From IMG/VR virus record IMGVR_UViG_3300044846_005772: 64,000 nt of DNA. The stretch is one strand, 5' to 3'. Within the stretch, counting starts at the first letter, position 1; each line of letters starts with the position of its first letter. The notes under the pieces were generated by a model. That model ran no database searches and was not told the DNA's origin. It saw nothing but the letters and a program-made list of their open reading frames with translations. This stretch comes from a virus. Its lineage: Duplodnaviria; Heunggongvirae; Uroviricota; Caudoviricetes. This document shows, one piece after another, positions 20,312 through 45,104 of the stretch. The position numbers and the translations under genes were made by a program.

Positions 20312-21229
20312 TTATCTAACGTCTTTAGTGATCCGATTGGGATCTTTTTGAGTGTCTTTGCAAAATTTATCTAGTTCTTGAGCAATAGCCGTATCATCCT
20401 GTGCTTTAGACAATTGAGCTATTACTGGAGCTAGTGCCATTTTAGTTATTCCCATAATCATGTTTCTCATTATGGGATTTGATTTAATCTCTTCAGTGGT
20501 CGCAGCAGGTATAGTATCAGTAACCTTAGGATCAGTTACGGATTGTATGCTGGCTGCTGGATCAATTTGAGTACTCGTAGTCGACTCTGGTGCATCAATA
20601 TTTGAAGAAACACCAACGTTTCTAAGAGCTGCATTTACTGTTTCTGTTAATTTTTGATTAAATCCAGGTTCAGATCTATATTCTAAAAAAGGATCAATGA
20701 ATCCAAGTAATTCAGAGTCAGATAATTTACGACCCCTTTCAATATTCAAACCAACTCTATGACCTTCTCCGCTAAGTTCATCGTTTGTGTTTCCTTCAAT
20801 CGTTTTTAGTTGATCGTTTTCAAAACCAAGTACAATACCAGTATGTCCCTTTCCAGAAGCAGCGCCTCCTCTGCTTTTAATAAAGATCATCCCAGGTAAA
20901 ATTAATGATGTATTTTTTCTAGCAGAATCTATATTAATCTTCATAGATTCTGGTGAATTTTTCCACATGCTTAACACAGATGCACTTGTCTTGAATGGAG
21001 GATTTTCAGAGAAAGCTAAATCAAATATCCATGAAACAAAAGCTGCACACCATGCCGCTGGAGAATTTATACCAACGTTACTCAACATCTTCTTAATCTC
21101 TGGAGAATTATTTGAGCCAGCTGGAGTTTCTTTAACTTTACTGTTTTGTGCAACAGCTGTTGCAAATTTTTGTATAAGTTGATCTGGATTTTCTTTCTCC
21201 TTTAAATATTGACTAAATGATTTGAGCAT
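20312..21229 (-). CDS. CHAP-domain peptidoglycan peptidase/amidase; N-terminal SFSQYLKE motif
   Basis: Cys in PAAWCAAFVSW and His in GHTGIVLG form a CHAP-like dyad. Confidence 0.6.
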   Translation of the reverse strand: MLKSFSQYLKEKENPDQLIQKFATAVAQNSKVKETPAGSNNSPEIKKMLSNVGINSPAAWCAAFVSWIFDLAFSENPPFKTSASVLSMWKNSPESMKINIDSARKNTSLILPGMIFIKSRGGAASGKGHTGIVLGFENDQLKTIEGNTNDELSGEGHRVGLNIERGRKLSDSELLGFIDPFLEYRSEPGFNQKLTETVNAALRNVGVSSNIDAPESTTSTQIDPAASIQSVTDPKVTDTIPAATTEEIKSNPIMRNMIMGITKMALAPVIAQLSKAQDDTAIAQELDKFCKDTQKDPNRITKDVR

Positions 21230-22746: not shown

Positions 22747-23382
22747 TTATTTTTTAGTTTTAATGATTTTCTTTTTACGGATCGGTACTTGATACTTTAG
22801 CATCTTTTCAAGTTCAGCTAACGTTATCTCCTTTCCGACTGAGTCGTTTATTTTATTAGTAAACAGTAGAACATGCGTAACTTTCAGGGTCGATAGTGAT
22901 TGTACAACTTTCCAACAATATGTTGGAACTTGTATTCCTTTCTCAATAGTTCCTGTCCAAATTCCTCCAGTTATTATCAATAAGGAGTCTTTTTGAGATT
23001 CCTGTCTAATTGTTGTTTCCCAGACTTTCCAAGGACCTCGGTTTAGGTTCGGAGTCTGCGGTAGACAGTTATAGTATCTAAATGTCAATTCATCTTTAAC
23101 GCAATCATATGCAAAATCCTCAGCATTTGCTAAATGTCCTCTGTCAAAACCAGATCTAGTGTACTCCGAATTATCAACCATTGCTAATTCAGTATCATTT
23201 ATAAATCTAAATTTCGATCGACTACATTCTCCTCCTCCTTTCCAAAGAACATACTTTACATACATTGGTTGCTGTAAAGAGTATGAGTAATAAGATTGAT
23301 AAATTCCTCGATCGATTATCGTATCTTGAGAAAAGGAAAGTAGTTGTAATACGATCCCAAGAGTAAGTAGCATAAACTTCAT
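22747..23382 (-). CDS. secreted DNA/RNA non-specific endonuclease (NUC family)
   Basis: N-terminal signal peptide and DRGHLANAED active-site motif. Confidence 0.7.
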   Translation of the reverse strand: MKFMLLTLGIVLQLLSFSQDTIIDRGIYQSYYSYSLQQPMYVKYVLWKGGGECSRSKFRFINDTELAMVDNSEYTRSGFDRGHLANAEDFAYDCVKDELTFRYYNCLPQTPNLNRGPWKVWETTIRQESQKDSLLIITGGIWTGTIEKGIQVPTYCWKVVQSLSTLKVTHVLLFTNKINDSVGKEITLAELEKMLKYQVPIRKKKIIKTKK

Positions 23383-23724: not shown

Positions 23725-24294
23725 ATGAAAATAATCTTTTTGGATATTGACGGTGTGCTGAATTGCCAGGATGCGTATGCTGCCGGTGAATGCGAATATG
23801 TTGAATGGACTAATGGGGATCAACATCAAGCTTTTTGCTCATGGAGCAAAGAATGGTTGAATAAGCTGATTGCTGAAAGTGAGGCAAAGATCGTCATCAG
23901 CTCTACTTGGAGGCATTCAGGCATTGAATATATGAAAAAGGTTTGGGAACTTGAAGGTATGCCTGGCGAAATCATTGGACTTACCCCAAACTTTAGAGGA
24001 GACATCAATGGCTATACTGTACCTCGAGGATGTGAAATTGAGAAGTGGTTAAGAGACAATGGCTTTCATCATATTAATTGGAGCCGTGACGCGCAGAACG
24101 AAAACATTCAAAAATCTGGCATTGAAAACTATTTGATTATTGATGATGATAGTGATATGCTCTACAGCCAAAGACATAACTTTTTGCATGTGCTACCTTC
24201 ACCGAGAAACACTCGTGGATTTGACCGCGATCATTATGTAAAAGGCATGCAAATACTTAGTTGGACAGTAACAGAACAAACATACGGAATATGA
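23725..24294 (+). CDS. HAD-superfamily phosphatase / nucleotidase-like
   Basis: N-terminal IIFLDIDGVLN motif I. Confidence 0.55.
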   Translation: MKIIFLDIDGVLNCQDAYAAGECEYVEWTNGDQHQAFCSWSKEWLNKLIAESEAKIVISSTWRHSGIEYMKKVWELEGMPGEIIGLTPNFRGDINGYTVPRGCEIEKWLRDNGFHHINWSRDAQNENIQKSGIENYLIIDDDSDMLYSQRHNFLHVLPSPRNTRGFDRDHYVKGMQILSWTVTEQTYGI

Positions 24295-25768: not shown

Positions 25769-26527
25769 ATGAGAATAGCTGTCTGTTTATCAGGTCATAG
25801 TAGAAATTATCTACAAAACGTACCAAACTTTCCATTTGAAGTTGATTATTTTATCTCTTCGTGTATGGAATCTGGGTTACCTAATATACACACCCAATCT
25901 TTCATATCATATCATTCACAAAATAATGTTAGAACAGAGTTAGCTAATTTGAATGATATACTTACAAAGTATAATCCGAAAGCTTGGGAATTTTTATATG
26001 ATACTACTATACCTGCTGAAGTTGAAAGATATATTGGTCTAAAAACAAAAAATAACAGTTATTTACATCATATTGCTATGATGTTTTATCGTATCTATAG
26101 GGCAAATGTGTTAAAATCTGAACATGAAAGATCGTATAACTTCACATATGATTTCGTGATTAGAAGTAGATTCGATGTTAAAGTTAATTCATTTGAATTT
26201 GATCAAAATTATTTGTATATGTTGAAGGGTCCAGATGGGATTCTAGATCTATTCTTTGCAGGTAAATCATATATAATTGATTCAATATGTAACTGCTATC
26301 TATGGTTTATACAACAGAGTCCAGACTATCTTCAATCGTTCAATAATGCTGAAAATATTCTTTTTCACTATGTTTGTAATTTAAAATTGAATCAGCCTAT
26401 GTTGAACACGTTTACAATAACTTTCAATAAAGACTATCCAGTGCAATATAGCATAATCAAAAATGGTTTAATGAAGTCCTTCGATCAAGATAATCATGTA
26501 TTTCTTGATGACCTAAATATTTTATAA
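25769..26527 (+). CDS. putative glycan-biosynthesis protein, paralog 1 (GT-like N-terminus)
   Basis: Starts MRIAVCLSGHSR, identical to the next gene; tandem duplicate. Confidence 0.5.
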   Translation: MRIAVCLSGHSRNYLQNVPNFPFEVDYFISSCMESGLPNIHTQSFISYHSQNNVRTELANLNDILTKYNPKAWEFLYDTTIPAEVERYIGLKTKNNSYLHHIAMMFYRIYRANVLKSEHERSYNFTYDFVIRSRFDVKVNSFEFDQNYLYMLKGPDGILDLFFAGKSYIIDSICNCYLWFIQQSPDYLQSFNNAENILFHYVCNLKLNQPMLNTFTITFNKDYPVQYSIIKNGLMKSFDQDNHVFLDDLNIL

Positions 26528-26528
26528 A

Positions 26529-27227
26529 ATGAGAATTGCTGTTTGTTTATCAGGTCATAGTCGGTACTTTAATGAAATAATGTTGCCCGAATTGGATGCT
26601 GATTACTTTATATCAACATATAAACAAGATGGATATCGACCAGTACATACGATAGACAACCCAATCGCTTATCATTTTTTTGATCATGTCGATACAACGT
26701 CTGCGAATATTAATGATATATTGAATAAGTATAATCCTAAATCAATTATAATATCAGACGACACCTGCATAGAAAATATAAAGAATAAATTTGGCGATGC
26801 TTTGACTTATTCTGGTGTTATTATTAGAAATGTTGCATCAATGTTTTATAAAATAAAACAAGCGAATGATCTAAAAAAGCAATATGAAATTGACAATAAT
26901 TTCAAATATGATTTTGTTTTTAGATACAGATTCGATACTAAATTAGACAGCATTACTTTTAATAGATTAGACACGTCAATGTACATAAAAAATAAAGGAG
27001 AATCTTCTTTTTATGATATGATGTATGGTGGAAACAGTTATGTCATGGATATTGCATCGAACTGCTTCGACTGGATGATGCAGGAATCTATTGAAAATCT
27101 AGCAAAGTTGAAAGATGCTGAGCATATTTTATTTCAATACTTAAAAAAATCGTTACCGCATATTACACTTAATGATAATTTCAAATATACTTTCTATAGT
27201 TTAAGAGACGGGACATATACAATATGA
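26529..27227 (+). CDS. putative glycan-biosynthesis protein, paralog 2
   Basis: Shares MRIAVCLSGHSR...YNPK...FRYRFD blocks with paralog 1. Confidence 0.5.
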   Translation: MRIAVCLSGHSRYFNEIMLPELDADYFISTYKQDGYRPVHTIDNPIAYHFFDHVDTTSANINDILNKYNPKSIIISDDTCIENIKNKFGDALTYSGVIIRNVASMFYKIKQANDLKKQYEIDNNFKYDFVFRYRFDTKLDSITFNRLDTSMYIKNKGESSFYDMMYGGNSYVMDIASNCFDWMMQESIENLAKLKDAEHILFQYLKKSLPHITLNDNFKYTFYSLRDGTYTI

Positions 27228-28597
27228 AAAAAATTAAACTAATTATCTTTGATTTAGACGGTGTTCTAATTGATGCAAAGAATATACATTTTGATTCATT
27301 AAATCTAGCTCTAGGCGAATACGCTATTGACTGGGATGAACACTTATCAATTTATGATGGATTAAAAACTAGTCAAAAATTAGAAATGTTACATGATCGT
27401 AAAGGACTGCCTAGGGAAAATTTCAAGCGTATTTGGGAAGAAAAACAAAAATACACGTTAGCTTCTCTAAGTAAAGTAGGAGAATCTGATCGCCTTCGAG
27501 AGTGTATGTTCTCTCTTGCTAGTGATGGTTATAAAATAGCAGTCTGTTCAAACAGTATACGAAAAACCGTTTTAACTGTTTTATCTAAATTAGGTATAAT
27601 TGAATACATGGATTTGATTATATCTAATGAAGATGTTAAAAATTCAAAACCTCATCCTGAAATGTACTGGAAAGCTATTTCAATGATGAGTTGTTTACCT
27701 GAGGAGACACTAATAGTTGAGGATTCGCCGTATGGACTATTAGCAGCATCTAGGGCTAAAGCTAATATTCTAAGAGTCACGCATCCGAATGAAGTAACGT
27801 ATGATAGTTTACGTAAAAAAATAAATGAAATAAGCACAGGAAGTATTATGATAACACCTAAATGGAAAGATGAAAAACTAAATATACTCGTTCCGATGGC
27901 TGGTGCAGGAAGTAGATTCGAGCAAGCTGGTTATACTTTTCCAAAACCTCTTATCGACGTAAATGGGAAGCCTATGATACAAGTAGTAATTGAGAATTTG
28001 AATATTGACGCAAATTACATATTCGTTGTTCAAAAAGAGCACAGAGAAAAATATAATTTAGATACTATGCTATCTTTAATTGCGCCGGGCTGCAAAATTG
28101 TCGAAACTGACCGACTAACACAAGGAGCCGCATGTACAGCGCTTTTAGCTAAAGAACACATTGATAATGACTCACCATTATTCTTTGCAAATTCAGATCA
28201 ATTTGTTGAATGGGACTCAAATGAGTTTATGTATAAAATGAATGAAACTAATGCAGACGGAGGAATAGTTACTTTTAAAGCGGCTCATCCAAAATGGTCC
28301 TTTGCTAAAATAGATTTAGAGACAGGCTGCGTAACTGAAGTTGCTGAAAAAAATCCAATATCGGACGACGCAACAGTCGGCTATTACTACTGGAAAATAG
28401 GTTCAGATTTTGTTAAGTATGCGGAACGTATGATAGAAAAAAACATTAGAGTAAATAATGAGTTCTATGTATGTCCAGTCTTCAATCAAGCTATTGAAGA
28501 TAATAAAAAAATACGCACGTTTACTGCAGACAAAATGTGGGGCTTAGGAACGCCTGAAGATTTAAAATATTATATTGAAAATTATGGGAAAAACTAA
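27224..28597 (+). CDS. bifunctional HAD phosphatase/phosphomutase-like + sugar-phosphate nucleotidyltransferase
   Basis: N-terminal IIFDLDGVLIDA (HAD motif I). Second half LVPMAGAGSRFEQAGYTFPKPLIDVNGKPMIQ is an NTP-transferase glycine-rich loop. Confidence 0.7.
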   Translation: MKKIKLIIFDLDGVLIDAKNIHFDSLNLALGEYAIDWDEHLSIYDGLKTSQKLEMLHDRKGLPRENFKRIWEEKQKYTLASLSKVGESDRLRECMFSLASDGYKIAVCSNSIRKTVLTVLSKLGIIEYMDLIISNEDVKNSKPHPEMYWKAISMMSCLPEETLIVEDSPYGLLAASRAKANILRVTHPNEVTYDSLRKKINEISTGSIMITPKWKDEKLNILVPMAGAGSRFEQAGYTFPKPLIDVNGKPMIQVVIENLNIDANYIFVVQKEHREKYNLDTMLSLIAPGCKIVETDRLTQGAACTALLAKEHIDNDSPLFFANSDQFVEWDSNEFMYKMNETNADGGIVTFKAAHPKWSFAKIDLETGCVTEVAEKNPISDDATVGYYYWKIGSDFVKYAERMIEKNIRVNNEFYVCPVFNQAIEDNKKIRTFTADKMWGLGTPEDLKYYIENYGKN

Positions 28598-29165
28598 AAT
28601 TGAAGTTGGCGCGAATAGCGGCGTCGACACTGAATTACTAGCGAGCGATGGTTCTATCGTATATGCGTTTGAACCTACTCATGAACTATTGAACACTCTG
28701 TGGGATAGGTTTAAAGAAAATAATAATGTCAAAATATTGCCGTTTGCAGTTGATACTGAGAACGGATTTGCTACATTTAAAGTCGCAGGCCATTGGGACT
28801 GGGGCTGCAGTAGTTTACATGATTTTTCTGGCCAATGGGAAAGAGAAGATTTTCACGTAACTCATACTTATCAAGTGCCTAAAATAACATTATTCGATTT
28901 TTGTAATCTTTATAATATTACAAAAATAGATTATCTCTGGATTGACGCTCAAGGTAATGACTTTAATTGTTTGTTATCGTTGAAGGATAAAATCAATTTA
29001 GTCGTTGAGGGTAGATGCGAAGTCGCCTTAAATTTAGAATTGTATAAAGACACAAATAACCATATCAATTACGTAAAGCCATGGTTAGAAACACATGGAT
29101 TCACAGTTGAAATACATCCAGATGGAACATCGGCTGAAGCTAATTTGATATTTTATAGAAAATGA
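28575..29165 (+). CDS. FkbM-family methyltransferase
   Basis: GANSGVDTELLA SAM motif; size 196 aa. Confidence 0.55.
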   Translation: MKIMGKTKIEVGANSGVDTELLASDGSIVYAFEPTHELLNTLWDRFKENNNVKILPFAVDTENGFATFKVAGHWDWGCSSLHDFSGQWEREDFHVTHTYQVPKITLFDFCNLYNITKIDYLWIDAQGNDFNCLLSLKDKINLVVEGRCEVALNLELYKDTNNHINYVKPWLETHGFTVEIHPDGTSAEANLIFYRK

Positions 29166-29614
29166 AACTAATATCTCATAGAGGTAACATTCGTGGACCC
29201 ATTCAAGAATTAGAGAATAGTCCAGAGTATATTGAAACTGCAATAACTCTAGGCTTTGATGTGGAAGTAGATGTGAGAATAAGAAATAATAAATTATTTC
29301 TAGGTCATGATGAACCACAATTTGAATTAAGTATTAACTTTTTAGAAAAATATTATTCAAAATTATGGTTACATTGTAAGGAAATTGAAGTCATCGAAAA
29401 GTTTAACGAATTAGATCCGAATGGAACACATCTACATTACTTTTGGCATGAAAATGATGTAATGGCTCTAACAAGTAAAGGCAATATATGGGCATATCCC
29501 GGAAAGCAGCCTATTTTAAATAGCATAGCAGTTTTGCCCGAAATCAACGGTGATGACGTCTCTAAATGTTATGGAGTATGCAGTGATTTTATAACAAATT
29601 ATAGAAGTATATGA
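29162..29614 (+). CDS. glycerophosphodiester phosphodiesterase (GDPD)-like protein
   Basis: ISHRGN...ENS...A...GFDVEVDVR...LGHDE matches the GDPD N-terminal signature. Confidence 0.55.
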   Translation: MKLISHRGNIRGPIQELENSPEYIETAITLGFDVEVDVRIRNNKLFLGHDEPQFELSINFLEKYYSKLWLHCKEIEVIEKFNELDPNGTHLHYFWHENDVMALTSKGNIWAYPGKQPILNSIAVLPEINGDDVSKCYGVCSDFITNYRSI

Positions 29615-30267
29615 AAATAGAATTAAAGAAAGATCAGCGACTGTGGTTCACAAGCGATACTCACTATAATCATGCAAACATATGTAGTGCTACTACACGG
29701 TGGGTAGGCGCAGATAACTTAACTCGTAAATTTAGCTCCTTGGAGAGAATGAATGATGAACTAGTTTTTTGGATTAATCACCGTGTAGAGCAGGACGATA
29801 TTCTAATTCATCTAGGTGACTGGTCATTTGGCGGATTTGAAAGCATCAAAGCATTTAGGGATCGTATTGTATGCCAGAACGTACACCTAGTACTAGGTAA
29901 CCACGATCACCATATCCAACGAAACAAGGACGATGTACAAAGCTTATTCAGCTCAGTGCACGAATACTTGTACTTGGAAGTTAAACGTCCTGGTACTACT
30001 AAGAAGGATGCGATAGATCGATTCGCTTTTGTTTGTATGCACTATCCGATTGCTAGTTGGAACAATATGAACAACGGAGCCATTCACTTACATGGACACG
30101 TTCACTTACCTAATCACCTTAGAGTAGCTGATGGTAAAGCTATGGATGTTGGCGTTGATGGAAATAACTTAGAGCCAATTAGCATGGAAGAGGTTCTTCG
30201 AATAATGAACAAGCGACCAATCGCTAAATTGGCTCTTCCAAAAGATCATCATGAAAAAAGAATATAG
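29611..30267 (+). CDS. metallophosphoesterase
   Basis: DTHYNH, GDWSFG and GNHDHH motifs. Confidence 0.65.
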   Translation: MKIELKKDQRLWFTSDTHYNHANICSATTRWVGADNLTRKFSSLERMNDELVFWINHRVEQDDILIHLGDWSFGGFESIKAFRDRIVCQNVHLVLGNHDHHIQRNKDDVQSLFSSVHEYLYLEVKRPGTTKKDAIDRFAFVCMHYPIASWNNMNNGAIHLHGHVHLPNHLRVADGKAMDVGVDGNNLEPISMEEVLRIMNKRPIAKLALPKDHHEKRI

Positions 30268-30272
30268 TCTGT

Positions 30273-31391
30273 ATGTTTTTCGAAAATAGTAAAGTAAAAA
30301 TTAATTTAGAAAAGTTTACTGAATTTGATTCAGGAAAACTTGCATTACTTGCAGTAGAACATTCTCCAAATGACGTAGCAATAGTATTCTTTCCACATGA
30401 CATCAATATTGAATACAAAATATCTATACAAATAAATTCTATATGTTTTAAAGAGTATACAATAAAACAGCAAGACGTATTTTATGTAATTCTTAAAAGG
30501 ACGATTGGTTTTTTCGAAATAGAAATATCATCAGTTTTTCAAAAAGACAAGTATATTAATACTTTGAGTAATTTAGAAGAAAATGGGAGCATTAACATAA
30601 TCAAGCCAAGAATAACATTGTATTCAATTTGCTGGAATGAAGAAAAGATATTGCCTTTTTTCTTACAGCATTATTCTAAATTCGTAGATAAAATAATAAT
30701 ATTTGATAACGAGTCGACTGATGATTCTATTAAGATCATTCAAGAGTTTAATGAATGTAGCGTTGAGATTATTTCATATTCTACTAATAATAAGATAGAC
30801 GATCGTAAATACCTCGAGATAAAAAATAATTGCTGGAAATCAGATCCATCTGAGTATGTAATTGTTTGCGATTCTGATGAATTTTTAGCTAGTGAGTATG
30901 ATATTCTTGAATATCTTTCTAATAATACAGACATAGACGTTTTTACACCAACCGGTTTTGAAATGATTTCTGAGGTTTTTCCAAATCAATCAGAATCAAT
31001 AATTCAACAAGTATTGAATGGAAGACCCCACGCTGGGTTAAATAAGAGAATTTTGTTTAGACCAAATATGATATTTGAGATAGGATATTCTCCAGGATGC
31101 CACATTAATTATCCAGTAGGAATCAATCTTAACGTTAAAGAGAGCAATTTGGATCTTATTATGCTACATTATAAATGTCTATCCCTCGATTATTTTATAA
31201 GTAGAACCGCTATTTTGGGAACTAGGTTGAGCGATTTTAATCTAAACGTTAATGCAGGTTCTCATTATCTTCTTGAAGATTCAAATCAAATTAATATTTT
31301 CAATCAAATTCTTTTGAATTCAACGCAAGTGGTTTCTGAAAAAATCATAAAACGCTTTGAAAAAAGATCAAAGCGAACATGGAAAATATAA
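30273..31391 (+). CDS. glycosyltransferase family 2-like protein
   Basis: YSICWNEEKILPFFLQHY...IIIFDNESTDDS resembles a GT-A (GT2) N-terminal region. Confidence 0.5.
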   Translation: MFFENSKVKINLEKFTEFDSGKLALLAVEHSPNDVAIVFFPHDINIEYKISIQINSICFKEYTIKQQDVFYVILKRTIGFFEIEISSVFQKDKYINTLSNLEENGSINIIKPRITLYSICWNEEKILPFFLQHYSKFVDKIIIFDNESTDDSIKIIQEFNECSVEIISYSTNNKIDDRKYLEIKNNCWKSDPSEYVIVCDSDEFLASEYDILEYLSNNTDIDVFTPTGFEMISEVFPNQSESIIQQVLNGRPHAGLNKRILFRPNMIFEIGYSPGCHINYPVGINLNVKESNLDLIMLHYKCLSLDYFISRTAILGTRLSDFNLNVNAGSHYLLEDSNQINIFNQILLNSTQVVSEKIIKRFEKRSKRTWKI

Positions 31392-31617
31392 ATTTTTATT
31401 AAATCTTTTCAAAAATATAGTATAATAATCACATGAATAAAATACTTTTCACATCACTTCTGTTTATCGTAGCAAACACAGGCTTGCTATGGTTATGGAC
31501 GATCGTATTTCGATCAGCAATTCCTTGGGCAGCATGGATCGGAGTAGTAACTCACATCTTCGTTCTATTCAACTTGCCTTATTCAAAAATGTTTAAACAA
31601 TAAATCCAAAAATCAAA

Positions 31618-32394
31618 ATGAAAAAAGCTATTTACTTTAGCCTTATTGCAGTGGTATTCGCTGCATGTAACTCAGTTCAACCGAACTTTGAGGGAGTCTT
31701 AATGCAAAATTACGGACGAAACGGAGTACAAGATTTCACAATCGTTACTGGTAATCAGGGAATGTTGGGTCCGGGAACAGAACTGTATCAGGTACCTATG
31801 TACGAGCAAACAGCCGATCCACAGCAAGTTAGTATTACTGCAAAGGACGCAGGTGTATTCACAGTAGATCCTTCATTCACTTACGAAGCCATTAGAGGTA
31901 AGGGGATCGATGTTGTGTTCAACTATAAGCATACTGGCTTTGACGATAACATGGACAACTTGGAGAACATGATCCTCAATCCAATAGTAGTAAACGCATT
32001 CAGAGAGGAAGCTCGCAATTTTACAACGGACTCCCTAATGAATAACTTAAATGCATTTGAATCTAGAGTACAGGAGAGATTAAAGCAGGAATTTGAGATA
32101 AAGTTCTTTAAGCTTAACTCATTAACTTCTGGTCTAACTCCACCTGCTTCAATGGCGCAAGCAATTGAGCAACGTAATAATCAAAAGCAAATGGCAGAGC
32201 AAGTAAAGAACGAGTTGGAAGTTGCTCGCATGCAAAAGGAGAAAGCGCAAATCGAACAAGAAACTAATCGTATCAAATCTCAAGGGTTGACGAAGGAAAT
32301 CTTAATGGAGCGCTATATAGATGCGTTACGCTGGAGCAATAATAGAATCATCATAACTGACGGAAAAACACCAGTTCTCCTAAATCAAAACTAA
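31618..32394 (+). CDS. lipoprotein with SPFH/band-7-like C-terminal region
   Basis: Lipobox AACNS after a signal peptide; Ala/Glu/Gln-rich C-terminal helix typical of SPFH. Confidence 0.45.
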   Translation: MKKAIYFSLIAVVFAACNSVQPNFEGVLMQNYGRNGVQDFTIVTGNQGMLGPGTELYQVPMYEQTADPQQVSITAKDAGVFTVDPSFTYEAIRGKGIDVVFNYKHTGFDDNMDNLENMILNPIVVNAFREEARNFTTDSLMNNLNAFESRVQERLKQEFEIKFFKLNSLTSGLTPPASMAQAIEQRNNQKQMAEQVKNELEVARMQKEKAQIEQETNRIKSQGLTKEILMERYIDALRWSNNRIIITDGKTPVLLNQN

Positions 32395-32582
32395 AAATAT
32401 AAACTAGAGGAGCAGCAGTGCTCCTCTTTATTCTTTAAATATATGACAGCATTTTCACTTTGCATGGCTATTGGTTGGGTAGCATTAGTCGCTTCATGGA
32501 TAATTCCATGGACGATGAAAAACAAAAAAATTAGCAGAATCGTTGCAATGATATTGTCTGCATTTGCAGTAGGGATATTCAT
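32391..32582 (-). CDS. small membrane protein (63 aa)
   Basis: Two hydrophobic segments. Confidence 0.35.
   Translation of the reverse strand: MNIPTANADNIIATILLIFLFFIVHGIIHEATNATQPIAMQSENAVIYLKNKEEHCCSSSLYF
32406..32433 (+). terminator. rho-independent terminator
   Basis: agaggagca-gcag-tgctcctct followed by T-rich run. Confidence 0.6.
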
Positions 32583-32619
32583 AGCTAATGGAATTTATAT
32601 TCTTTTTAAATAAGAACTG

Positions 32620-33105
32620 ATGAGAAGAACAATAACACCAGAATCAGAAGAACAAGAATCGGAAGATTATTTTAGATCGTACGCGACTGTTTTCCTAGCT
32701 GGCTCAATTGAAATGGGAGAAGCTGAGGACTGGCAAACGAAAGTCATCAATTCATTTGATGAGAAAGATGAAGTCACTTTCTTTAATCCTAGAAGAGATG
32801 CTTGGGATTCTTCGTGGGAACAAGCACAATCTAATCCACAGTTCAATCATCAAGTAAACTGGGAGTTGAATCATTTAGACTCATGTGATATTGTCTTTAT
32901 GAACTTTATTCCAGGAACAAAGAGCCCTATCTCTTTACTTGAATTGGGAGCATATGGTCATCATAATAAAATGATAGTGTGCTGCCCTGAAGGTTTCTGG
33001 AGAAAAGGAAACGTTGATATTTTCTGCACTAGACAAAACATCCAAGTGTTTACTGATCTTACTGCAGCAATTGGTGCTCTACGAACTAAACTTGAAACCA
33101 TTTAA
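32620..33105 (+). CDS. nucleoside 2-deoxyribosyltransferase-fold protein
   Basis: VFLAGSIEMG ... SLLELGAYGH pattern of the PF05014-like fold. Confidence 0.45.
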   Translation: MRRTITPESEEQESEDYFRSYATVFLAGSIEMGEAEDWQTKVINSFDEKDEVTFFNPRRDAWDSSWEQAQSNPQFNHQVNWELNHLDSCDIVFMNFIPGTKSPISLLELGAYGHHNKMIVCCPEGFWRKGNVDIFCTRQNIQVFTDLTAAIGALRTKLETI

Positions 33106-33109
33106 CTAG

Positions 33110-34630
33110 ATGAATCCTCTACTATTAACAGACGGCTACAAGACTGGCCATCACCAACAGTATCCTAAAGGCACGACTTTAGTGTATTCTAACTTCACAC
33201 CACGTTCAAACAAGTACGCTCCTAAGGGATGTGATGCAGTTGTAGTATTCGGACCTCAAATGGTTATGATGCAATTGGACGAAATGTTTCAAAGAGACTT
33301 TTTTGATCGACCTAAGGATCTGGTTTGCGGAGAAATGAAAAGAGAACTTTCAGCATATCTAGGTACAGATTATGATGTTAGCCACTTTGAGGCGTTGCAT
33401 GATTTAGGCTATCTTCCAATTGCAGTTAAAGCATTGCCGGAAGGTACTAAGGCACCAATTAAGGTTCCAGTGTTGACTATTTACAACACACATCCTGACT
33501 TCTATTGGATCACAAATTATCTTGAAACAATTCTTTCCAACTTGCTGTGGAAACCAATGACGTCAGCTACTATCGCCCATCAGTACAGAAAGGTATTGAC
33601 ATGTTGGATGGAAAAGACAGATAAAGAAAGAGCATGGTTTGTGGATTGGCAAGGGCATGACTTTTCAATGCGAGGCATGGACTCAGTCGAGGCAGTCGTT
33701 AGTTCAGGCTTAGGTCACCTAACTTCCTTTCTAGGTTCCGATTCTCTACCAGCTATTCATGGTGCTAGAAAGTTCTATGGAGCTAGCGAGTTTGTTGCAG
33801 GTTCAGTTCCAGCTACAGAGCATTCGGTGATGTGCGCAGGCGGTAAGGAAGACGAGGTTGAAACGTTCCGCAGATTGTTAGAGACATATCCGAAAGGAAT
33901 CCTTTCAGTAGTATCTGATACATGGGATCTTTGGAAAGTTTGTACCGAACATGTGGTTACTTTGAAAGAAGAAATTATGGCTCGTGATGGTAAGTTAGTT
34001 ATTCGCCCTGACTCAGGTGACCCAGTAGATATTTTATGTGGTTCTATTCGTTTTGATAATAAAGAAGAATACGAAACGGAAAAAGCTGATGGAACATTAA
34101 GTAAAGCAAATCCATCTGAAAAAGGAGTTATCGAATTACTTTGGGATGTATTTGGAGGAACAGTAAACGAACAAGGATACAAAGTTCTTGACTCACATAT
34201 TGGAGCTATTTACGGTGACTCAATCACAATTGACAGAGCAGATGAGATTTGCAGACGTTTAGAAGCAAAAGGATTCGCATCAACAAACGTAGTGTTAGGT
34301 ATCGGTTCATTCACTTACCAATACAATACTCGTGATACATTTGGGTTTGCAATGAAAGCCACTTACGTAGAAGTTAAACACCAAGTAGAATCAGGAATCC
34401 CAGTGTTTGCAATTGAAGGTCGTGAGATTTTTAAAGACCCGATCACTGATGATGGAACAAAGAAATCAGCAACTGGTCTGTTGTGTGTTGAGGAGTTAGA
34501 TGGTGAAATTAAGTTATACGATAAAGTATCTTGGAATACAGAAGACACTGGCGTACTTCAACTTATCTATAAAGACGGCCAGCAATATAACGTTACATCA
34601 TTAGAAGATATCCGAAAAAAATTAAGATAA
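33110..34630 (+). CDS. nadV: nicotinamide phosphoribosyltransferase (NAMPT/NadV) family protein; could equally be a NARP1 Namat
   Basis: 506 aa, NAMPT-like throughout; adjacent to a PRPP-synthetase homolog. Confidence 0.75.
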   Translation: MNPLLLTDGYKTGHHQQYPKGTTLVYSNFTPRSNKYAPKGCDAVVVFGPQMVMMQLDEMFQRDFFDRPKDLVCGEMKRELSAYLGTDYDVSHFEALHDLGYLPIAVKALPEGTKAPIKVPVLTIYNTHPDFYWITNYLETILSNLLWKPMTSATIAHQYRKVLTCWMEKTDKERAWFVDWQGHDFSMRGMDSVEAVVSSGLGHLTSFLGSDSLPAIHGARKFYGASEFVAGSVPATEHSVMCAGGKEDEVETFRRLLETYPKGILSVVSDTWDLWKVCTEHVVTLKEEIMARDGKLVIRPDSGDPVDILCGSIRFDNKEEYETEKADGTLSKANPSEKGVIELLWDVFGGTVNEQGYKVLDSHIGAIYGDSITIDRADEICRRLEAKGFASTNVVLGIGSFTYQYNTRDTFGFAMKATYVEVKHQVESGIPVFAIEGREIFKDPITDDGTKKSATGLLCVEELDGEIKLYDKVSWNTEDTGVLQLIYKDGQQYNVTSLEDIRKKLR

Positions 34631-34634
34631 TTAC

Positions 34635-35513
34635 ATGAGTCAATTAAATTTAGAATATCCTGAAAAATCAGATATTAAGTATAAGATCAATAGGTTTCCT
34701 GACGGCCAACAAAGCATCACCTTAAACACAACTTGGGGATACTTGGATGTTGAGGTTCAGATAGTAAGTAGACTCAAAACATTTAGGGATCTTGAATTAG
34801 TTATTTGCGCAACGGCTGCTTTAAGAAATATAGGTTACTCCAAAATTTCTCTGTATGTTCCCTACTTCTTGGGCGCTAGGTCAGATCGTCGATTTAATGA
34901 TTGGGAAGCAAACTACTTGAAGGAAGTAATCTGTCCTATTGTTAATTCTCAAAAGTACCATTCGGTTACTGTGATGGACCCTCATTCGGATGTGCTGGAA
35001 GCCTGCCTAGAAAACTATCGATTGATAGATAATATCAACTTAGTCAAGTTTGCTCTTACAGATATTGATAACCGAAATGATGCTCGTGATCGAATCGTCA
35101 TAGTATCGCCAGACGCTGGTGCGCTAAAGAAGATTTACAAGGTAGCTGAGCATTTCAAAATTAGCAACTTGATCACAGCATCTAAGCACAGGGATATTGC
35201 GACTGGTAAGATAACTGAAACTGTTGTGCCGGAGTTGGAAAAGTATTCTGATAACCACGCATTCGTTATCGTTGACGACATCTGTGATGGAGGCAGAACT
35301 TTTATTGAAGCCTCAAAGGTAATCAAGCAAGCACACCCTTCAGCAAAAGTATATGCAATTGTGACACATGGAATATTTAGTAATAGCTTCTTGGAATTGA
35401 GTAGACACTTTACTAAGATGTACTCAACTAATAGTTACTCAGATATTGATGTTGAAAGCCACAGCGACTATACAGTAAGTAAGGACTTCCTAATGCAATT
35501 CAATATATTCTAA
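34635..35513 (+). CDS. prs: ribose-phosphate pyrophosphokinase (PRPP synthetase) family protein; could be an ADPR-PP synthetase (Adps) of NARP1
   Basis: IVSPDAGALKK and PRPP-binding IVDDICDGGRTF motifs. Confidence 0.7.
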   Translation: MSQLNLEYPEKSDIKYKINRFPDGQQSITLNTTWGYLDVEVQIVSRLKTFRDLELVICATAALRNIGYSKISLYVPYFLGARSDRRFNDWEANYLKEVICPIVNSQKYHSVTVMDPHSDVLEACLENYRLIDNINLVKFALTDIDNRNDARDRIVIVSPDAGALKKIYKVAEHFKISNLITASKHRDIATGKITETVVPELEKYSDNHAFVIVDDICDGGRTFIEASKVIKQAHPSAKVYAIVTHGIFSNSFLELSRHFTKMYSTNSYSDIDVESHSDYTVSKDFLMQFNIF

Positions 35514-38189: not shown

Positions 38190-38861
38190 CTAAACTAGAT
38201 CAAATAGAATAATCTCTGCTTCTGAGCTCGTTACGATCTCTATCTTGCTCTCCTCAGTATAACTAAGACCATCTCCCTCAATCAGGGAAAGTCCATTTAC
38301 TGTTGCTTCACCTAGCACAACATACAAGTAATATCTACGCGAAGAGTCTAATTCAAAAGTAAAATCTTGAGTAAAGATTCCAGCAAGAAGTCTAGCGTCC
38401 TGCTTGATGGGAAGTTTTTCAGTAATATTGCAAAAACGATTTAACTTATCTTCCCTTGTAAATTGGTACCATGCATACTCAGATTCAGTTTCGGTGACAT
38501 TTGGCTGAATCCACAGTTGTAAGTATCTATTTTGTTCATCAGTTGAGTTTCCTTCAGTGTGCCATATGCTTTTTCCAGCGCTCATTCGTTGAACTGCGCC
38601 TGCTGGAATATCCATATTGTTTCCATGACTATCAGTATGTCTGCACTTCCCTTTAACTACGTATCCAAATATTTCCATGTTGTTATGTTCGTGCCATGGA
38701 ACATGACCATTTGGTTCAACTCGATCATCGTTAATGGTCTGAAGATGACCAAAATTCATGTAGGCAGGGTCATAATACCCTGGAAAGCTGAATGTTCTAT
38801 ATGAATTTATCCAACTTGCTCTAGGATTTCCTCTAGTGTGATGCGGTCTGTGTATTATCAT
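38190..38861 (-). CDS. pirin-like cupin protein
   Basis: HTRGNPRASW...NGHVPWHEHNNMEI...RHTDSHGN...MSAGKSIWHTE matches pirin HxH...E metal site and RHxDS signature. Confidence 0.7.
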   Translation of the reverse strand: MIIHRPHHTRGNPRASWINSYRTFSFPGYYDPAYMNFGHLQTINDDRVEPNGHVPWHEHNNMEIFGYVVKGKCRHTDSHGNNMDIPAGAVQRMSAGKSIWHTEGNSTDEQNRYLQLWIQPNVTETESEYAWYQFTREDKLNRFCNITEKLPIKQDARLLAGIFTQDFTFELDSSRRYYLYVVLGEATVNGLSLIEGDGLSYTEESKIEIVTSSEAEIILFDLV

Positions 38862-41497: not shown

Positions 41498-43735
41498 TTA
41501 CTTGTATATTTTATAGACTTCAAAGCGATCAGAATAAACTTCTTTGACGATATACATACCACTGGGTAGATCAGCGAAATTATCGATGTTTAATTTTACG
41601 CCAGTCACCGTATAGAAAATATAAGATGGAGTCTCAAGTACTTCATTATTTAGAATTTCATTTGTTGCAATTCTATTTACAATAAAATCAACAGTATTAT
41701 TTGAAGTATTTCCATCATCCGTGAAACCATTTACTGTCATAATTTTTAGTTGATATGTATTTGTCGAGCCAACTGGAACGGCACAGTTGTTAGTACTTCC
41801 GCAAAGATTTAAACTAATATAACTGTTTGGTCCAGGCAAAAAAGTAGACTGTCCGGGTAAAAGATTACCTGACCAATTTACAGTGACTGAGCATCCAAAC
41901 GCTGACGTACAAGTCAGCCACTTTCTATAATATGAAAGGCTAGTGATCGGAGTGGTTCCTTGATTAGTTATTCTCCATCGTACGTTAACTATTTGAGAGG
42001 AAGTCGTTAAAGGATTTGAAGTTGGCATAGCTAATTCTACGCTAACGTCGGTTCCTACAAATAGCGGATCATTTACTATGAATTGTGAAAGGGCAACATT
42101 ATCAGATTGGATATCGTCAGAGTATCCTAAATCATAGTTTATTTTAACTAGCACATATTTTGTTCCCTGTGGACCGCTTACTGTACGTTGCATAGAAACT
42201 GGTGAACTTGCCAAATTTGCACCTAACTCTACAGTATCGGTAGAAAGTATGGTGTCATCCGAGTCTCCCCATATCGTATTAGTCGAGTATCTAGTTTGCA
42301 CAAGAACGCTAACTTCTTCCAGAGTAGGTTGTGAAGTTACTGCATTAAATGAAATAGCTAGCGTGTCACCTATGTTCAACATGGCAGGAGAAAGAGCCAA
42401 TCCACTAACTGTAAAATTATGTTTTGGAGCAGGCGGTGGAGGTGGAGGAGTACCTGGACCAGGAGTCATCAACACAGCCGAGTGTAGATTTATTCTACCA
42501 TAACCCAGTTCATTGCTCCTGGTTCCATATGGCCATGCTGCATTATTTGAGTAAACATATCCGCCAACTTTATCGCATGACATGGAAAGTATTTGAAGTA
42601 TTTCATCGTCTGTCAATTCCCAATTTTTATATGCGATAATTGCGGAGGCAGCTGCTGTTATTGGACATGAGAATGAAGTTCCGCTTACGCTCCTGTAGTT
42701 TTCAATCCCATATCCGTCAACTCCTACACGGTCAGTCGTTCTTATAGAACTGCCGGGCGCAGAAATATCACAGATTTGGCCATAATTTGAGAAGGATGAT
42801 CTAAAGTCCAACGACGTAGTTGCACCTACTCCCCATACTGCTGAATAATTTGCAGGATATTGCGCAGCTGTGCCAGAGTATCCGTTCCCAGAAGATGCAA
42901 ACACCATCATTCCCTTACCGCCTCTTCCATTTGTTCTGGCTGACTGGAAGGCAGCGTCCAATGCAGCAGAATAGCTGCTTCCTCCATATGACATGGCAAT
43001 GGCAACGCAATTAGGATTAGACATAGCTGCATTAACTGCCGCGATTTGTATAGAAGATGTGGTTGAAAAGGAACCACCTGCATATACAGCAGACATTATG
43101 TTAATTGGCATAACCTTCACGAAGTTATTGCCGACACTACTAACTCCAAGTCCATTGTTAGTAACTGCTGCAATTGTGCCTGAACATGCAGTTCCATGAT
43201 TATCATATGCATTTGCATAAGGTATCGAGCTTGAACCATTTACTGCATTATATGGACTGTCTATGTTCCCAGCCAAGTCAGGGTGAGTTAGGTCTAAGCC
43301 TCCGTCAAACATCGCGACTGAAACCCATGGATTATTTTGAGGCAGAGCATCCCATGCTTCGGGTGCATCTATATCACGATCAGTAGATTGGGAAAGATGC
43401 CAACATTGGGAAAATTCAGTATCGTTTGGAATGTAGTCATGTTCGTAATCCATAACCTCATCACGATACACTTTTTCAATAAAACTCTTACGAGTCAACT
43501 CTAATTCAATATCAGAGATTTGAAGATCTGCTGCTACTTCGACTAGATACCAGCCTAAAGCTGAGTATTCCTTTACAATTTTTAAGCGGTTAAGCTCAAA
43601 GAAAGATTGTGTGGTACTTTCCTGTCCCTTTACCGGAACAACGATGAGCTGACGTTCAGCATTTGCAAAAAGATCTTGTGCAAATGCCTGTGCTGAGATG
43701 ATAAGACCCAACACTAGTGATAATAGTAATTTCAT
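41498..43735 (-). CDS. secreted subtilisin-like serine peptidase (S8) with T9SS C-terminal sorting domain
   Basis: Signal peptide MKLLLSLVLGLIISAQA. DHGTACSG (His region) and SGTSFSCPITAAASAII (Ser region). C-terminus LPSGMYIVKEV...YKIYK resembles Por/T9SS CTD motifs D and E. Confidence 0.7.
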   Translation of the reverse strand: MKLLLSLVLGLIISAQAFAQDLFANAERQLIVVPVKGQESTTQSFFELNRLKIVKEYSALGWYLVEVAADLQISDIELELTRKSFIEKVYRDEVMDYEHDYIPNDTEFSQCWHLSQSTDRDIDAPEAWDALPQNNPWVSVAMFDGGLDLTHPDLAGNIDSPYNAVNGSSSIPYANAYDNHGTACSGTIAAVTNNGLGVSSVGNNFVKVMPINIMSAVYAGGSFSTTSSIQIAAVNAAMSNPNCVAIAMSYGGSSYSAALDAAFQSARTNGRGGKGMMVFASSGNGYSGTAAQYPANYSAVWGVGATTSLDFRSSFSNYGQICDISAPGSSIRTTDRVGVDGYGIENYRSVSGTSFSCPITAAASAIIAYKNWELTDDEILQILSMSCDKVGGYVYSNNAAWPYGTRSNELGYGRINLHSAVLMTPGPGTPPPPPPAPKHNFTVSGLALSPAMLNIGDTLAISFNAVTSQPTLEEVSVLVQTRYSTNTIWGDSDDTILSTDTVELGANLASSPVSMQRTVSGPQGTKYVLVKINYDLGYSDDIQSDNVALSQFIVNDPLFVGTDVSVELAMPTSNPLTTSSQIVNVRWRITNQGTTPITSLSYYRKWLTCTSAFGCSVTVNWSGNLLPGQSTFLPGPNSYISLNLCGSTNNCAVPVGSTNTYQLKIMTVNGFTDDGNTSNNTVDFIVNRIATNEILNNEVLETPSYIFYTVTGVKLNIDNFADLPSGMYIVKEVYSDRFEVYKIYK

Positions 43736-43990: not shown

Positions 43991-44065
43991 TGGTAGGTCC
44001 ACCAGGAATCGAACCTGGAATAGAAGCTTAGAAGGCTACTGTTATATCCATTTAACTATGGACCC
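43991..44065 (-). tRNA. tRNA-Arg (anticodon TCT)
   Basis: Acceptor GGGTCCA/TGGACCT, T-arm CCAGG-TTCGATT-CCTGG, anticodon loop CTTCTAA, encoded CCA. One mismatch in the anticodon stem. Confidence 0.55.
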
Positions 44066-44073
44066 AAATAAGC

Positions 44074-44123
44074 AAAGGTCAGCTTCTCTATCCGTGTGGT
44101 ATTTCACGAGCTGACCTTTTAGT
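44074..44123. terminator. long-loop hairpin, possible terminator
   Basis: aaaggtcagc ... gctgaccttt inverted repeat. Confidence 0.4.
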
Positions 44124-44133
44124 TTAAATTATT

Positions 44134-44877
44134 TTAGGAAATTTTACCTAAAGTAAATTCTCCATTCTCGTAAACGAGATACTGTTTTTCCTCAAGAGCG
44201 TCTATGAAGTAATAGCGATTGCCTGTTGACTTTCCTTCTATGTCGATCTTACGTACACCGGTGTGTCCGGCTATTTGGATATGCTTCTCCTTTAGGAAGG
44301 TGTCCCGGTTCCCACTCATCAAGCTCGCAGGACGTATCCAGATGGGGGTTTGAGTTTTTGAATCTCCATAAGGATCCCAACCATTAAAGGTAAATTTAGC
44401 AGGCCTGTATTTCCAAAGGTCGTTCACGAAATCGGAGATGCTCTGCTCACCAGTCTCATCATACCCATTTTGAGTTACCAACCACGAATGACCGATTCCT
44501 GCATGCGAACAGATGATGTCGTCCAACTGATAGCACATTTGTAAATGGTGAGAGTTTTCCTCAAGCAACTGTCGTATTACTGGCGCAGCACCGTGCTGAT
44601 AACCCGAATAGGTCTCTCCGCCTGGATAGTAATGGTAATCGTGATTACCTATGAGCATGATAACTTGGGTCTTGCGTTGAGTGTCCGTACCTTCATCAGT
44701 AAATGAAGTCTCCTTGTACTCAATGATCTCCTTGAAATTATGTAGCTGTTCGGTCGTGCCTATGTCAAAGCTGTCAAAGTAGTCGCCGACGAAGACCACA
44801 TGATCCGCATTTTCCTTCTCCACAATCTCCTTCCAAATAGATCTGCCGTGGATATCGCCTATGAATATTGTTTTCAT
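44134..44877 (-). CDS. PPP-family Ser/Thr phosphatase / ApaH-like metallophosphoesterase
   Basis: GDIHGR, GDYFDSFDIG and GNHDYH motifs. Confidence 0.7.
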   Translation of the reverse strand: MKTIFIGDIHGRSIWKEIVEKENADHVVFVGDYFDSFDIGTTEQLHNFKEIIEYKETSFTDEGTDTQRKTQVIMLIGNHDYHYYPGGETYSGYQHGAAPVIRQLLEENSHHLQMCYQLDDIICSHAGIGHSWLVTQNGYDETGEQSISDFVNDLWKYRPAKFTFNGWDPYGDSKTQTPIWIRPASLMSGNRDTFLKEKHIQIAGHTGVRKIDIEGKSTGNRYYFIDALEEKQYLVYENGEFTLGKIS

Positions 44878-45104
44878 CTAGATTGATTATTTTTTATCCT
44901 AGCCCTCAGACCTTCCCAGTAACCCGACTCATGTCGGTACCTATGTACCGGCCCAAGTTCATCCGGAAAAGCGGTGAGCATGCGCGAGGAGTTTTGAGTG
45001 TCCGCTAACATGAAAGTGTTTACCAAGCTTGTGTGGAAGCTACCGGCCGTGCCGATGCTCCAATAGTAGAGTTCCCACTCCCATCTGTTTATTTCCTTAT
45101 CCAT
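44874..45104 (-). CDS. hypothetical protein
   Basis: ORF overlapping the upstream stop. Confidence 0.35.
   Translation of the reverse strand: MDKEINRWEWELYYWSIGTAGSFHTSLVNTFMLADTQNSSRMLTAFPDELGPVHRYRHESGYWEGLRARIKNNQSR

Follow-up and report, generated by a model that had tools for sequence, protein, structure and literature searches.

A predicted cytoplasmic glycan-building gene cluster in a large myophage and its mostly viral core

Genes and enzyme families of the cluster

The IMG/VR virus record IMGVR_UViG_3300044846_005772 carries, at positions 25769-31391 of the 64-kb stretch analyzed here (the window, part of a larger genome), a compact cluster of genes for predicted glycan-building enzymes. 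Seven co-directional open reading frames (ORFs) are located on the plus strand, with predicted products of 150-457 aa. An earlier note on this DNA had counted eight; the common direction stands, the number does not. Neighboring ORFs are separated by gaps of 1-5 nt or overlap by 4-23 nt, an operon-like packing in which stop and start codons overlap and the reading frames stay intact across the cluster. Catalytic motifs are kept in all seven proteins, none of which contains a transmembrane segment (no hydrophobic 19-mer above a Kyte-Doolittle value of 1.6). The G+C content of the cluster, 0.30-0.35, is similar to that of the surrounding 42 kb. The genes are listed below, together with a related gene outside the cluster.

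25769-26527, plus strand: paralog A, 252 aa, predicted GT-A-like transferase of the DUF7796 superfamily (ORF, phrog_13607, similarity to paralog B)
26529-27227, plus strand: paralog B, 232 aa, predicted GT-A-like transferase of the DUF7796 superfamily (fold model)
27224-28597, plus strand: HAD-NT fusion, 457 aa, HAD-IA domain (beta-phosphoglucomutase-like, aa 1-205) and sugar-1-phosphate nucleotidyltransferase (NT) domain (aa 218-457) (Pfam, PDB)
28575-29165, plus strand: FkbM-family S-adenosylmethionine (SAM)-dependent methyltransferase, 196 aa (PF05050, TIGR01444)
29162-29614, plus strand: mini-GDPD, a GDPD-fold phosphodiesterase-like protein, 150 aa (fold, catalytic signature)
29611-30267, plus strand: calcineurin-like metallophosphoesterase (MPE), 218 aa (PF00149, phrog_547)
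30273-31391, plus strand: GT2-family (GT-A) glycosyltransferase, 372 aa, N-terminal ~110 aa without domain assignment (PF13704, PF00535)
1361-2026, minus strand: second FkbM-family methyltransferase, 221 aa, next to phoH (PF05050, TIGR01444)

The tandem paralogs share the N-terminal start MRIAVCLSGHSR, as had been noticed before, and their identity across 237 residues is 38% (E=5e-47). Paralog A matches phrog_13607 (E=4e-7). On the DUF7796 profile (PF25072), paralogs A and B reach 13.1 and 15.2 bits, below the gathering threshold of 27, while relatives pulled in by the family profile attain as much as 123.8 bits. Because the window proteins fall short and the profile-retrieved relatives pass, we regard A and B as probable remote members of the DUF7796 superfamily, outside the curated cut-off. 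The family itself is large. A word-indexed protein search with paralog B gave only 10 homologues; the exhaustive profile search of 1.84 billion representatives reached the family and returned 4359 clusters, of which 1486 have E<=1e-10. In many members, a single chain combines one or two DUF7796 domains with a SAM methyltransferase domain at its N-terminus, an arrangement that parallels the tandem paralogs and the FkbM gene of the cluster.

In a 102-sequence alignment (A2), residues G9, F27, Y127, R134 and D136 are invariant and C6, S8, D25, E120, D128 and D163 nearly so. Both paralogs retain the invariant and near-invariant residues, several of which lie in the conserved motif Y127-D128-F-V-x-R-x-R134-F-D136. 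Paralog A also retains every residue that is invariant in a 9-sequence alignment (A1), a set that includes the five of A2. The DxD motif for metal and diphosphate binding is absent from the paralogs and the family alignment, which is still compatible with transferase activity since some GT-A families are metal-independent. The AlphaFold2 model of paralog B obtained with the 102-sequence alignment (pLDDT 92.3, pTM 0.91) consists of one Rossmann-like domain (alpha/beta/alpha) that can be superposed on GT-A enzymes, and its structural matches are exclusively single-domain GT-A-type nucleotide-diphospho-sugar (NDP-sugar) transferases. The model thus predicts that the paralogs are GT-A-like transferases of NDP-sugars.

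It was proposed in the earlier note that the paralogs have a GT-B-like N-terminus reminiscent of phage DNA glucosyltransferases. This is not borne out: the model lacks the two Rossmann domains of the GT-B fold, and tblastn with T4 alpha-gt and beta-gt gives no match at E<=1 across the window and 87 related loci. A GT-B or T4-gt identity was rejected on these grounds. Foldseek searches of BFVD place the paralog fold in cyanophages (three proteins of S-SKS1, and S-PRM1) and in many giant viruses, including Catovirus, Fadolivirus, Tupanvirus, CroV, chloroviruses and a Sylvanvirus 'DUF7796 domain-containing protein'. Among PDB sequences the paralog profile gave one spurious Fab match only, and literature searches for DUF7796 gave nothing. 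Kinship with WavE could not be established (hhalign E=0.087 against one sequence; E=0.0016 with a probability of 16% against a small family), and profiles of the NT domain, HAD, GT2 and GT10 showed no similarity to DUF7796 in hhalign.

Both halves of the HAD-NT fusion are recognized by Pfam: HAD_2 with E=2.1e-30 (106.6 bits, cut-off 23.8) and NTP_transferase (PF00483) with E=8.2e-11 (42.4 bits, cut-off 21.2). The DxDG nucleophile motif is present as FDLDGV at aa 9-14, and the NT domain contains the signature MAGAGSRF...PKPL of the G-x-G-(S/T)-R type. By sequence, the fusion joins a HAD superfamily IA domain to a sugar-1-phosphate nucleotidyltransferase. Its NCBIfam matches are at the subfamily level only. 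On the HAD domain, the beta-phosphoglucomutase equivalog TIGR01990 reaches 82.6 bits, under its cut-off of 189.4, and the PpaX, BT2127-type pyrophosphatase and HxpB models are all below cut-off. The same is true of the RmlA, GlmU-type and AglF equivalogs on the NT domain, and a predicted substrate is therefore not assigned. The best matches of the HAD domain are the TM_1254 phosphatase, beta-phosphoglucomutases and the BT2127 pyrophosphatase in the PDB, as well as sugar-phosphate phosphatases, PpaX and CbbY. For the NT domain the best PDB match is 4evw, an uncharacterized NDP-sugar pyrophosphorylase (2e-16), and HddC-like PDB entries were also matched.

The earlier note had the fusion right, but its description of the HAD domain as a phosphatase was too narrow. 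The domain is beta-phosphoglucomutase-like and, because no equivalog reaches its cut-off, phosphatase is just one of three options, along with mutase and pyrophosphatase; the choice among them is uncertain. By analogy, a mutase, bisphosphate-phosphatase or pyrophosphatase role would suit a HAD domain fused to a nucleotidyltransferase at least as well as that of a plain phosphatase.

The FkbM protein of the cluster matches PF05050 with E=2.7e-17 (63.9 bits, cut-off 22.7) and TIGR01444 with 59.3 bits (cut-off 37.7). Its length of 196 aa is counted from a TTG start; the start used in ORF calling is the ATG at 28584. The second FkbM gene, which had also been predicted, is confirmed by PF05050 (E=3.9e-16) and TIGR01444 (76.3 bits). 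It is 27% identical to the cluster protein (E=3e-7), lies 23 kb away and is encoded on the opposite strand, and was rejected as a part of the cluster unit. It adjoins phoH in the window, a gene that frequently borders the glycan island in relatives.

The mini-GDPD matches no Pfam or NCBIfam model, and its profile finds the PDB entry 7e0v, a GDPD, only weakly (E=0.009 over 50 residues). The protein is one member of a close-knit family (more than 2200 proteins, ~145-150 aa) that conserves the GDPD catalytic signature HRG...EN...ExD...HD. The protein has the GDPD TIM-barrel fold with the catalytic His and Arg and the metal-binding Glu and Asp residues. The barrel is not of full length: 136 of the 150 aa align, while the matched GDPD chains have 218-328 residues. 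As the signature is conserved in a protein this short, mini-GDPD is a minimal or truncated GDPD barrel, about two thirds of the usual length.

The MPE exceeds the PF00149 cut-off (26.4 vs 21.5 bits), matches phrog_547 (E=4.3e-42) and contains the motifs DTH, GDW, GNHD and GHVH. The GT2 domain is recognized at aa 119-232 by PF13704 (E=2.5e-11; 44.4 bits, cut-off 27.5) and, at threshold, by PF00535 (23.5 vs 23.3 bits). This protein also matches phrog_13126, a beta-1,4-glycosyltransferase (E=2.6e-7), and weakly Listeria GmaR in the PDB (E=0.024). The calls of an FkbM methyltransferase, a GDPD-like phosphodiesterase, a metallophosphoesterase and a GT2-like glycosyltransferase made in the earlier note were thus correct.

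A module shared with related loci

The gene neighborhood was compared across 83 loci: 80 IMG/VR loci seeded on mini-GDPD, two cyanophage loci and the window. HAD-NT is found in 69 of them. In 60 of the 69 it lies upstream of mini-GDPD, in 29 as the immediate neighbor, and in 68 the two genes share a strand. Of the 83 loci, 46 contain DUF7796-like genes, a count that includes a protein cluster (cluster 54) joined to the family by hhalign (probability 97%, E=7e-11). Methyltransferases occur in 22, and four methyltransferase families recur within the module of relatives. The genes between HAD-NT and mini-GDPD vary and include DUF7796, FkbM, TylF-type, Methyltransf_11/23-type, 106-aa cupin-like, WavE-like and, in six loci, RuBisCO-like genes. 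The next commonest neighbors are GDP-mannose 4,6-dehydratase, DegT aminotransferase, GT2, GT4, GT10 fucosyltransferase, the PF11397 GlcNAc-transferase and PhoH. HAD-NT and mini-GDPD are the two constant ends of a very abundant, overwhelmingly viral cassette with interchangeable tailoring genes.

The closest relatives are four metagenome contigs (L001-L004), in which the order A, B, HAD-NT, FkbM, mini-GDPD is kept at 53-90% identity. The orthologue of paralog A is 53% identical in all four, and that of the cluster FkbM, 86% identical, occupies the same position in L001, L002 and L004. Past mini-GDPD these contigs diverge to other methyltransferases and a short GT2. The terminal genes of our cluster are rarely seen elsewhere: a homologue of the GT2 gene is present in one related locus only (L013, 40% identity), and none of 87 related loci has an MPE homologue next to the module. 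A megablast search of 50,697 phage records found no near-identical DNA for the cluster.

Across viral loci, the NT domain is 65-91% and mini-GDPD 50-68% identical. For the fusion, at least 8000 homologues were found, with identities of 77% or more throughout the top 120. Counterparts of the fusion in the Synechococcus phages S-CAM9, S-PRM1, B3/B23, DSL-LC03 and S-8S55 (Kyanoviridae) are 56-58% identical. In S-CAM9 and B23, the homologous fusions lie in annotated glycosyltransferase islands; in B23, gp353 is a mini-GDPD (48% identity) directly after the fusion, and a DUF7796-like gene follows two genes further. The fusion is ~80% identical to thousands of metagenome proteins and, in the phage database, 58% to cyanophage proteins, whereas the portal of the window is at most 40% identical to that of any phage in this database. 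This suggests that the HAD-NT module has spread horizontally among unrelated aquatic myophages or is under unusually strong constraint.

The module is mostly viral, with at least 588 confirmed IMG/VR loci against 20 loci in 185,579 species genomes (one per species). Most of the 20 cellular loci are contigs of single-amplified or metagenome-assembled genomes. One of the 20 lies on a complete Candidatus Pelagibacter chromosome, where mini-GDPD, a stand-alone NT, a RuBisCO-like protein and a HAD-NT fusion occur together. Its neighbors, a GT9 heptosyltransferase, a SIS isomerase, a 2-hydroxyacid dehydrogenase and a CMP-Kdo-synthetase-like gene, mark the locus by sequence as lipopolysaccharide (LPS)-type. 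A distant DUF7796 homologue (P0010) is likewise found amid KdsA-, KdsB- and ManC-like genes.

Two further associations can be observed in the relatives. RuBisCO-like proteins (PF00016, E=8e-32 and 5e-43) adjoin mini-GDPD in loci L019, L027, L038, L041 (1488-2717), L051 and L085, and the Pelagibacter one lies by the NT and mini-GDPD genes (L101, 9183-10376); literature searches gave nothing on RuBisCO-like proteins in phage sugar-nucleotide or nucleotidyltransferase modules. A PF11397 'GlcNAc' glycosyltransferase (E=3e-73, cluster 52) is located beside HAD-NT and mini-GDPD in L036, L044, L048, L051, L055 and L061. The window encodes a prolyl-hydroxylase-type 2OG-Fe(II) oxygenase at 10883-11467 on the plus strand (PF13640, E=1.3e-13). 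PF11397 is the family of the cytoplasmic Skp1 hydroxyproline GlcNAc-transferase. The oxygenase and the PF11397 genes of relatives hint at hydroxyproline-linked protein glycosylation in these phages.

Proposed pathway, acceptor and rival explanations

We propose, with a probability of about 0.6, that the cluster is a phage-encoded, wholly cytoplasmic glycan-building operon with a glycoconjugate acceptor other than DNA. The earlier note had suggested that these genes synthesize and transfer an activated, possibly methylated sugar or polyol phosphate; the domain calls and the four recurring methyltransferase families support this idea, with methylation being probable.

The individual reactions, their order and the sugar are predictions. 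HAD-NT would produce the nucleotide-activated sugar, its NT domain joining a nucleoside triphosphate and a sugar-1-phosphate. The HAD domain could supply the sugar-1-phosphate, either by mutase activity or by dephosphorylating a sugar bisphosphate, in the way that GmhB precedes HddC. Alternatively, it could hydrolyze the released pyrophosphate and drive the reaction forward like BT2127, which serves as a precedent for a pyrophosphate-removing HAD protein (PMC11210485). The sugar may then be O-methylated by FkbM, and the three GT-A-type transferases, the two DUF7796 paralogs and GT2, would add residues sequentially to the acceptor. Mini-GDPD would cleave or form a phosphodiester, serving in the delivery of a phosphorylated precursor or in trimming or installing a phosphodiester-linked substituent. 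The MPE, placed in the pathway by its position alone, may have a similar part.

The earlier note had named phage DNA, virion proteins and the host envelope as possible targets. Evidence is split between the last two, and the data do not separate them. A phage virion protein is our favored, still tentative, option. Because none of the seven products has a transmembrane segment, a cytoplasmic acceptor such as a virion protein is preferred. In the 83 loci no recurrent multi-pass membrane protein was found (8 of 1456 ORFs have at least three hydrophobic segments, and none recurs), and for this reason a flippase, polymerase or polyprenyl-phosphate transferase is not part of the module. On the same grounds, Gtr-type serotype conversion by a GtrA flippase, a GtrB bactoprenol glycosyltransferase and GtrC was rejected. 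The hosts of these phages are lysed, which also favors the virion as the acceptor. The structural relatives of the paralogs in BFVD come predominantly from giant viruses, and these viruses use soluble glycosyltransferase and methyltransferase enzymes such as PBCV-1 A064R to glycosylate their capsids (PMC9614988). An LPS- or O-antigen-type envelope glycan of the host is a serious contender that we likewise hold at under even odds. The cellular relatives and the neighbor genes are of LPS/O-antigen type, as seen in the P0010 locus, in Pelagibacter and in IMG/VR loci, and an envelope role is the prevailing, untested literature hypothesis for such islands (PMC3037559, PMC7029224, PMC12801897).

DNA is the least supported of the three targets, and we consider its hypermodification quite improbable. 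The paralogs and/or GT2 would then place the NDP-sugar from HAD-NT on a hydroxylated or hydroxymethylated base, protecting it from restriction as in the T4, RB69/DLP3 and 5mYOX pathways. The arabinosyl-cytosine clusters of RB69/DLP3 do include a HAD-like phosphatase and a nucleotidyltransferase (10.1101/2025.06.16.659550), GT-A-fold DNA glycosyltransferases are known in phages (10.1101/2023.12.21.572611), and a non-specific DNA/RNA endonuclease encoded at 22747-23382 might call for protection of self DNA. However, DNA-sugar pathways in print normally cluster with ThyS-like or C5-methyltransferase/5mYOX enzymes (10.1101/2023.12.21.572611), and no such base-activating enzyme was detected here. 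Pfam searches for ThyA/dCMP-hydroxymethylase, TET/JBP (5mYOX) and C5-methyltransferases gave no match in 30 other window ORFs (20 flanking ones at 10.2-23.4 and 38.2-39.5 kb, and 10 further). Like the T4 glucosyltransferases, T4 gp42 and gp56 are without a tblastn match in the window and the 87 related loci, ~1.1 Mb in total. These scans cover ORFs of at least 120 aa in the 64-kb window, at the sensitivity of tblastn, and partner genes could lie elsewhere in the genome. The paralogs lack the R...DDD...EDY/F motifs of phage/JGT GT-A DNA glycosyltransferases. In addition, the same module occurs in Kyanoviridae and in the LPS-type locus of the Pelagibacter chromosome, and the neighbor genes of relatives are O-antigen-type sugar genes.

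Synthesis of a soluble metabolite appears unlikely, too. Here, the GDPD would free glycerol-3-phosphate, the NT domain would make an NDP-sugar, a GT-A-like enzyme would form glycosyl-glycerol-phosphate and the HAD domain would dephosphorylate it, following the logic of GgpS/GgpP and MpgS/MpgP; a rewiring of the host's nucleotide-sugar or sugar-phosphate pools by auxiliary metabolic genes belongs to the same class of explanation. The hypervariable glycosyltransferases and methyltransferases around the core are typical of surface-glycan diversification and not of a fixed metabolite. The DUF7796 gene is absent in 37 of the 83 loci, and literature searches revealed no precedent. That the genes form no functional unit at all, being a patchwork of independently gained 'moron' genes or stuffer DNA in a hyperplastic region, with some inactive members, is highly improbable. 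Sullivan et al. considered 'stuffer DNA' a possibility for cyanophage LPS clusters (PMC3037559), and the scarcity of the MPE and this GT2 in other loci would agree with it. A scan for sigma-70-type promoters is at background (51 found, 47.9 expected), and of 7 terminator-like sites (3.8 expected) none clearly flanks the operon. Against a patchwork stand the intact frames with their overlapping stop and start codons, the complete set of catalytic motifs, the strong conservation of the NT and GDPD domains and the kept gene order.

A bolder version of the glycan-building proposal is speculative, and we think it rather doubtful as a whole. The cassette would represent a new activated-sugar or sugar-phosphate chemistry by which aquatic myophages attach methylated, possibly phosphodiester-linked glycans to the virions that they build, and DUF7796 would be a new metal-independent glycosyltransferase family. 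If true, virion self-decoration by aquatic myophages, some of them among the most abundant, would be the bacterial-virus counterpart of giant-virus self-glycosylation.

Genome context and known systems

The window is phage DNA, with genes for a T4-type portal (PF07230, E=2.4e-59), primase, PhoH, helicase, a sigma factor and a family-B DNA polymerase fragment. In the phage collection, the nearest match of the portal (7651-9354) is 40% identical and belongs to a 462-kb uncultured phage, followed by Lak megaphages. Because of these portal relatives, the source, a freshwater phage, is classified by sequence as a large myophage and not a cyanophage. The polymerase ORF (3601-5025, plus strand, 474 aa) aligns only with the C-terminal part of the profile (phrog_262, 500-840 of 856) and is directly followed by the primase ORF; this could mean a split polymerase or an N-terminal portion encoded elsewhere.

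Directly downstream of the cluster, at 31433-32613 on the plus strand, a 56-aa protein with hydrophobic, predicted membrane-spanning segments, an SPFH/Band-7 protein and another 56-aa hydrophobic protein are encoded. The SPFH/Band-7 protein (PF01145; phrog_200 'lipoprotein') has an N-terminus that resembles a lipoprotein signal peptide (...VVFAAC), and a hairpin follows its gene at 32406-32427. Next comes a nucleoside 2-deoxyribosyltransferase-like gene (32620-33105; PF15891, E=2.4e-35), just upstream of a pair at 33110-35513 on the plus strand: a nicotinamide phosphoribosyltransferase-like gene (506 aa; NF006629 E=1e-162, phrog_448) with a ribose-phosphate pyrophosphokinase-like gene (292 aa; phrog_619) directly behind it. 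Such a pair (Namat and Adps) has been described as NARP1, a phage pathway for NAD+ reconstitution that acts in anti-defense. Besides the endonuclease, accessory genes in the vicinity of the cluster encode a CHAP-domain protein (20312-21229), a 'Swiss Army Knife' RNA-repair-type HAD domain (23725-24294), a pirin (38190-38861) and a 745-aa S8 subtilase (41498-43735).

The G+C content, 0.30-0.40 in the first 42 kb, climbs to 0.41-0.53 at 42000-64000, with a peak of 0.535 at 48-50 kb, and long ORFs are scarce at 45.9-48.4 kb. This part is still phage-like, with genes for a sigma factor (54403-55116) and a RecA/DnaB-like ATPase (51220-52362). A tRNA cluster lies at 43991-47590 on the minus strand, with three tRNAs predicted by ARAGORN (Arg-TCT, Leu-TAG, Arg-CCG). 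Two further tRNA matches (46693-46829, 137 nt; 46984-47085, 102 nt), found by Rfam but not by ARAGORN, are unusually long and may be intron-containing or otherwise atypical. Rfam also places a 'freshwater-1' sRNA motif at 46526-46587 (score 72.1, gathering threshold 72).

With its T4-like portal, and with homologues of the fusion, mini-GDPD and DUF7796 inside the islands of B23 and S-CAM9, the cluster can be counted among the 'LPS-like' glycan islands, an already known and variable feature of aquatic T4-like myophages. Islands of this type in cyanophages and pelagiphages have been noted since 2010, none with an assigned product or target. The cluster itself is an ordinary example; its relatives reveal a small, highly conserved and near-exclusively viral core of HAD-NT, mini-GDPD and often DUF7796. 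Because the core occurs in cultured Synechococcus phages, the function of the islands, whether virion glycosylation, host-surface remodeling or DNA modification, is directly testable, and three uncharacterized enzyme families are highlighted for biochemistry.

The closest parallels are the 'LPS' or cell-wall-synthesis islands of cyanophages (P-SSM2, S-SSM7, S-SM2, S-CAM9, B23, S-SCSM2R) and pelagimyophages, likewise variable sets of glycosyltransferase and NDP-sugar genes that large aquatic myophages often carry close to phoH or tRNAs. Differences can be observed in the cluster's own combination of tandem DUF7796 genes, FkbM, MPE and a long GT2, in the distance of 23 kb to phoH and in the portal, which is not that of a cyanophage.

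For the HAD-NT fusion, a candidate likeness is the GmhB-HddC/HldC pair of NDP-heptose synthesis, in which a HAD enzyme trims a sugar bisphosphate to the sugar-1-phosphate used by the nucleotidyltransferase. BT2127, a HAD pyrophosphatase that removes pyrophosphate, offers another, and the HAD domain of the fusion does match the BT2127-type and PpaX models. Unlike in these systems, the equivalog models remain far under their cut-offs, and heptose kinase and isomerase genes are not in the window cluster. GmhB belongs to a HAD subfamily other than that of the fusion's HAD domain.

DNA-hypermodification clusters (T4 alpha/beta-gt, RB69/DLP3, 5mYOX/ThyS) share glycosyltransferases with ours, and RB69/DLP3 also a HAD phosphatase and an NDP-sugar pyrophosphorylase domain. 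They use GT-B (beta-gt-like) or JGT-like GT-A enzymes along with base-activating enzymes, none of which was found here.

One precedent for phage self-glycosylation is given by mycobacteriophages, whose glycosyltransferase clusters decorate capsid and tail-tube proteins (Freeman et al. 2023, as described in PMC12619734 and PMC12801897). These clusters come from another phage group and host and contain other enzyme families. They adjoin structural genes, whereas the cluster described here does not. In chlorovirus PBCV-1, A064R (a GT-A domain, a metal-independent glycosyltransferase and a methyltransferase) and A061L act in capsid glycosylation, a resemblance drawn from the description of these enzymes. 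Here the host is a bacterium, and a virion glycan is known for no phage with this module; the combination of soluble glycosyltransferases and a methyltransferase is what the two systems have in common.

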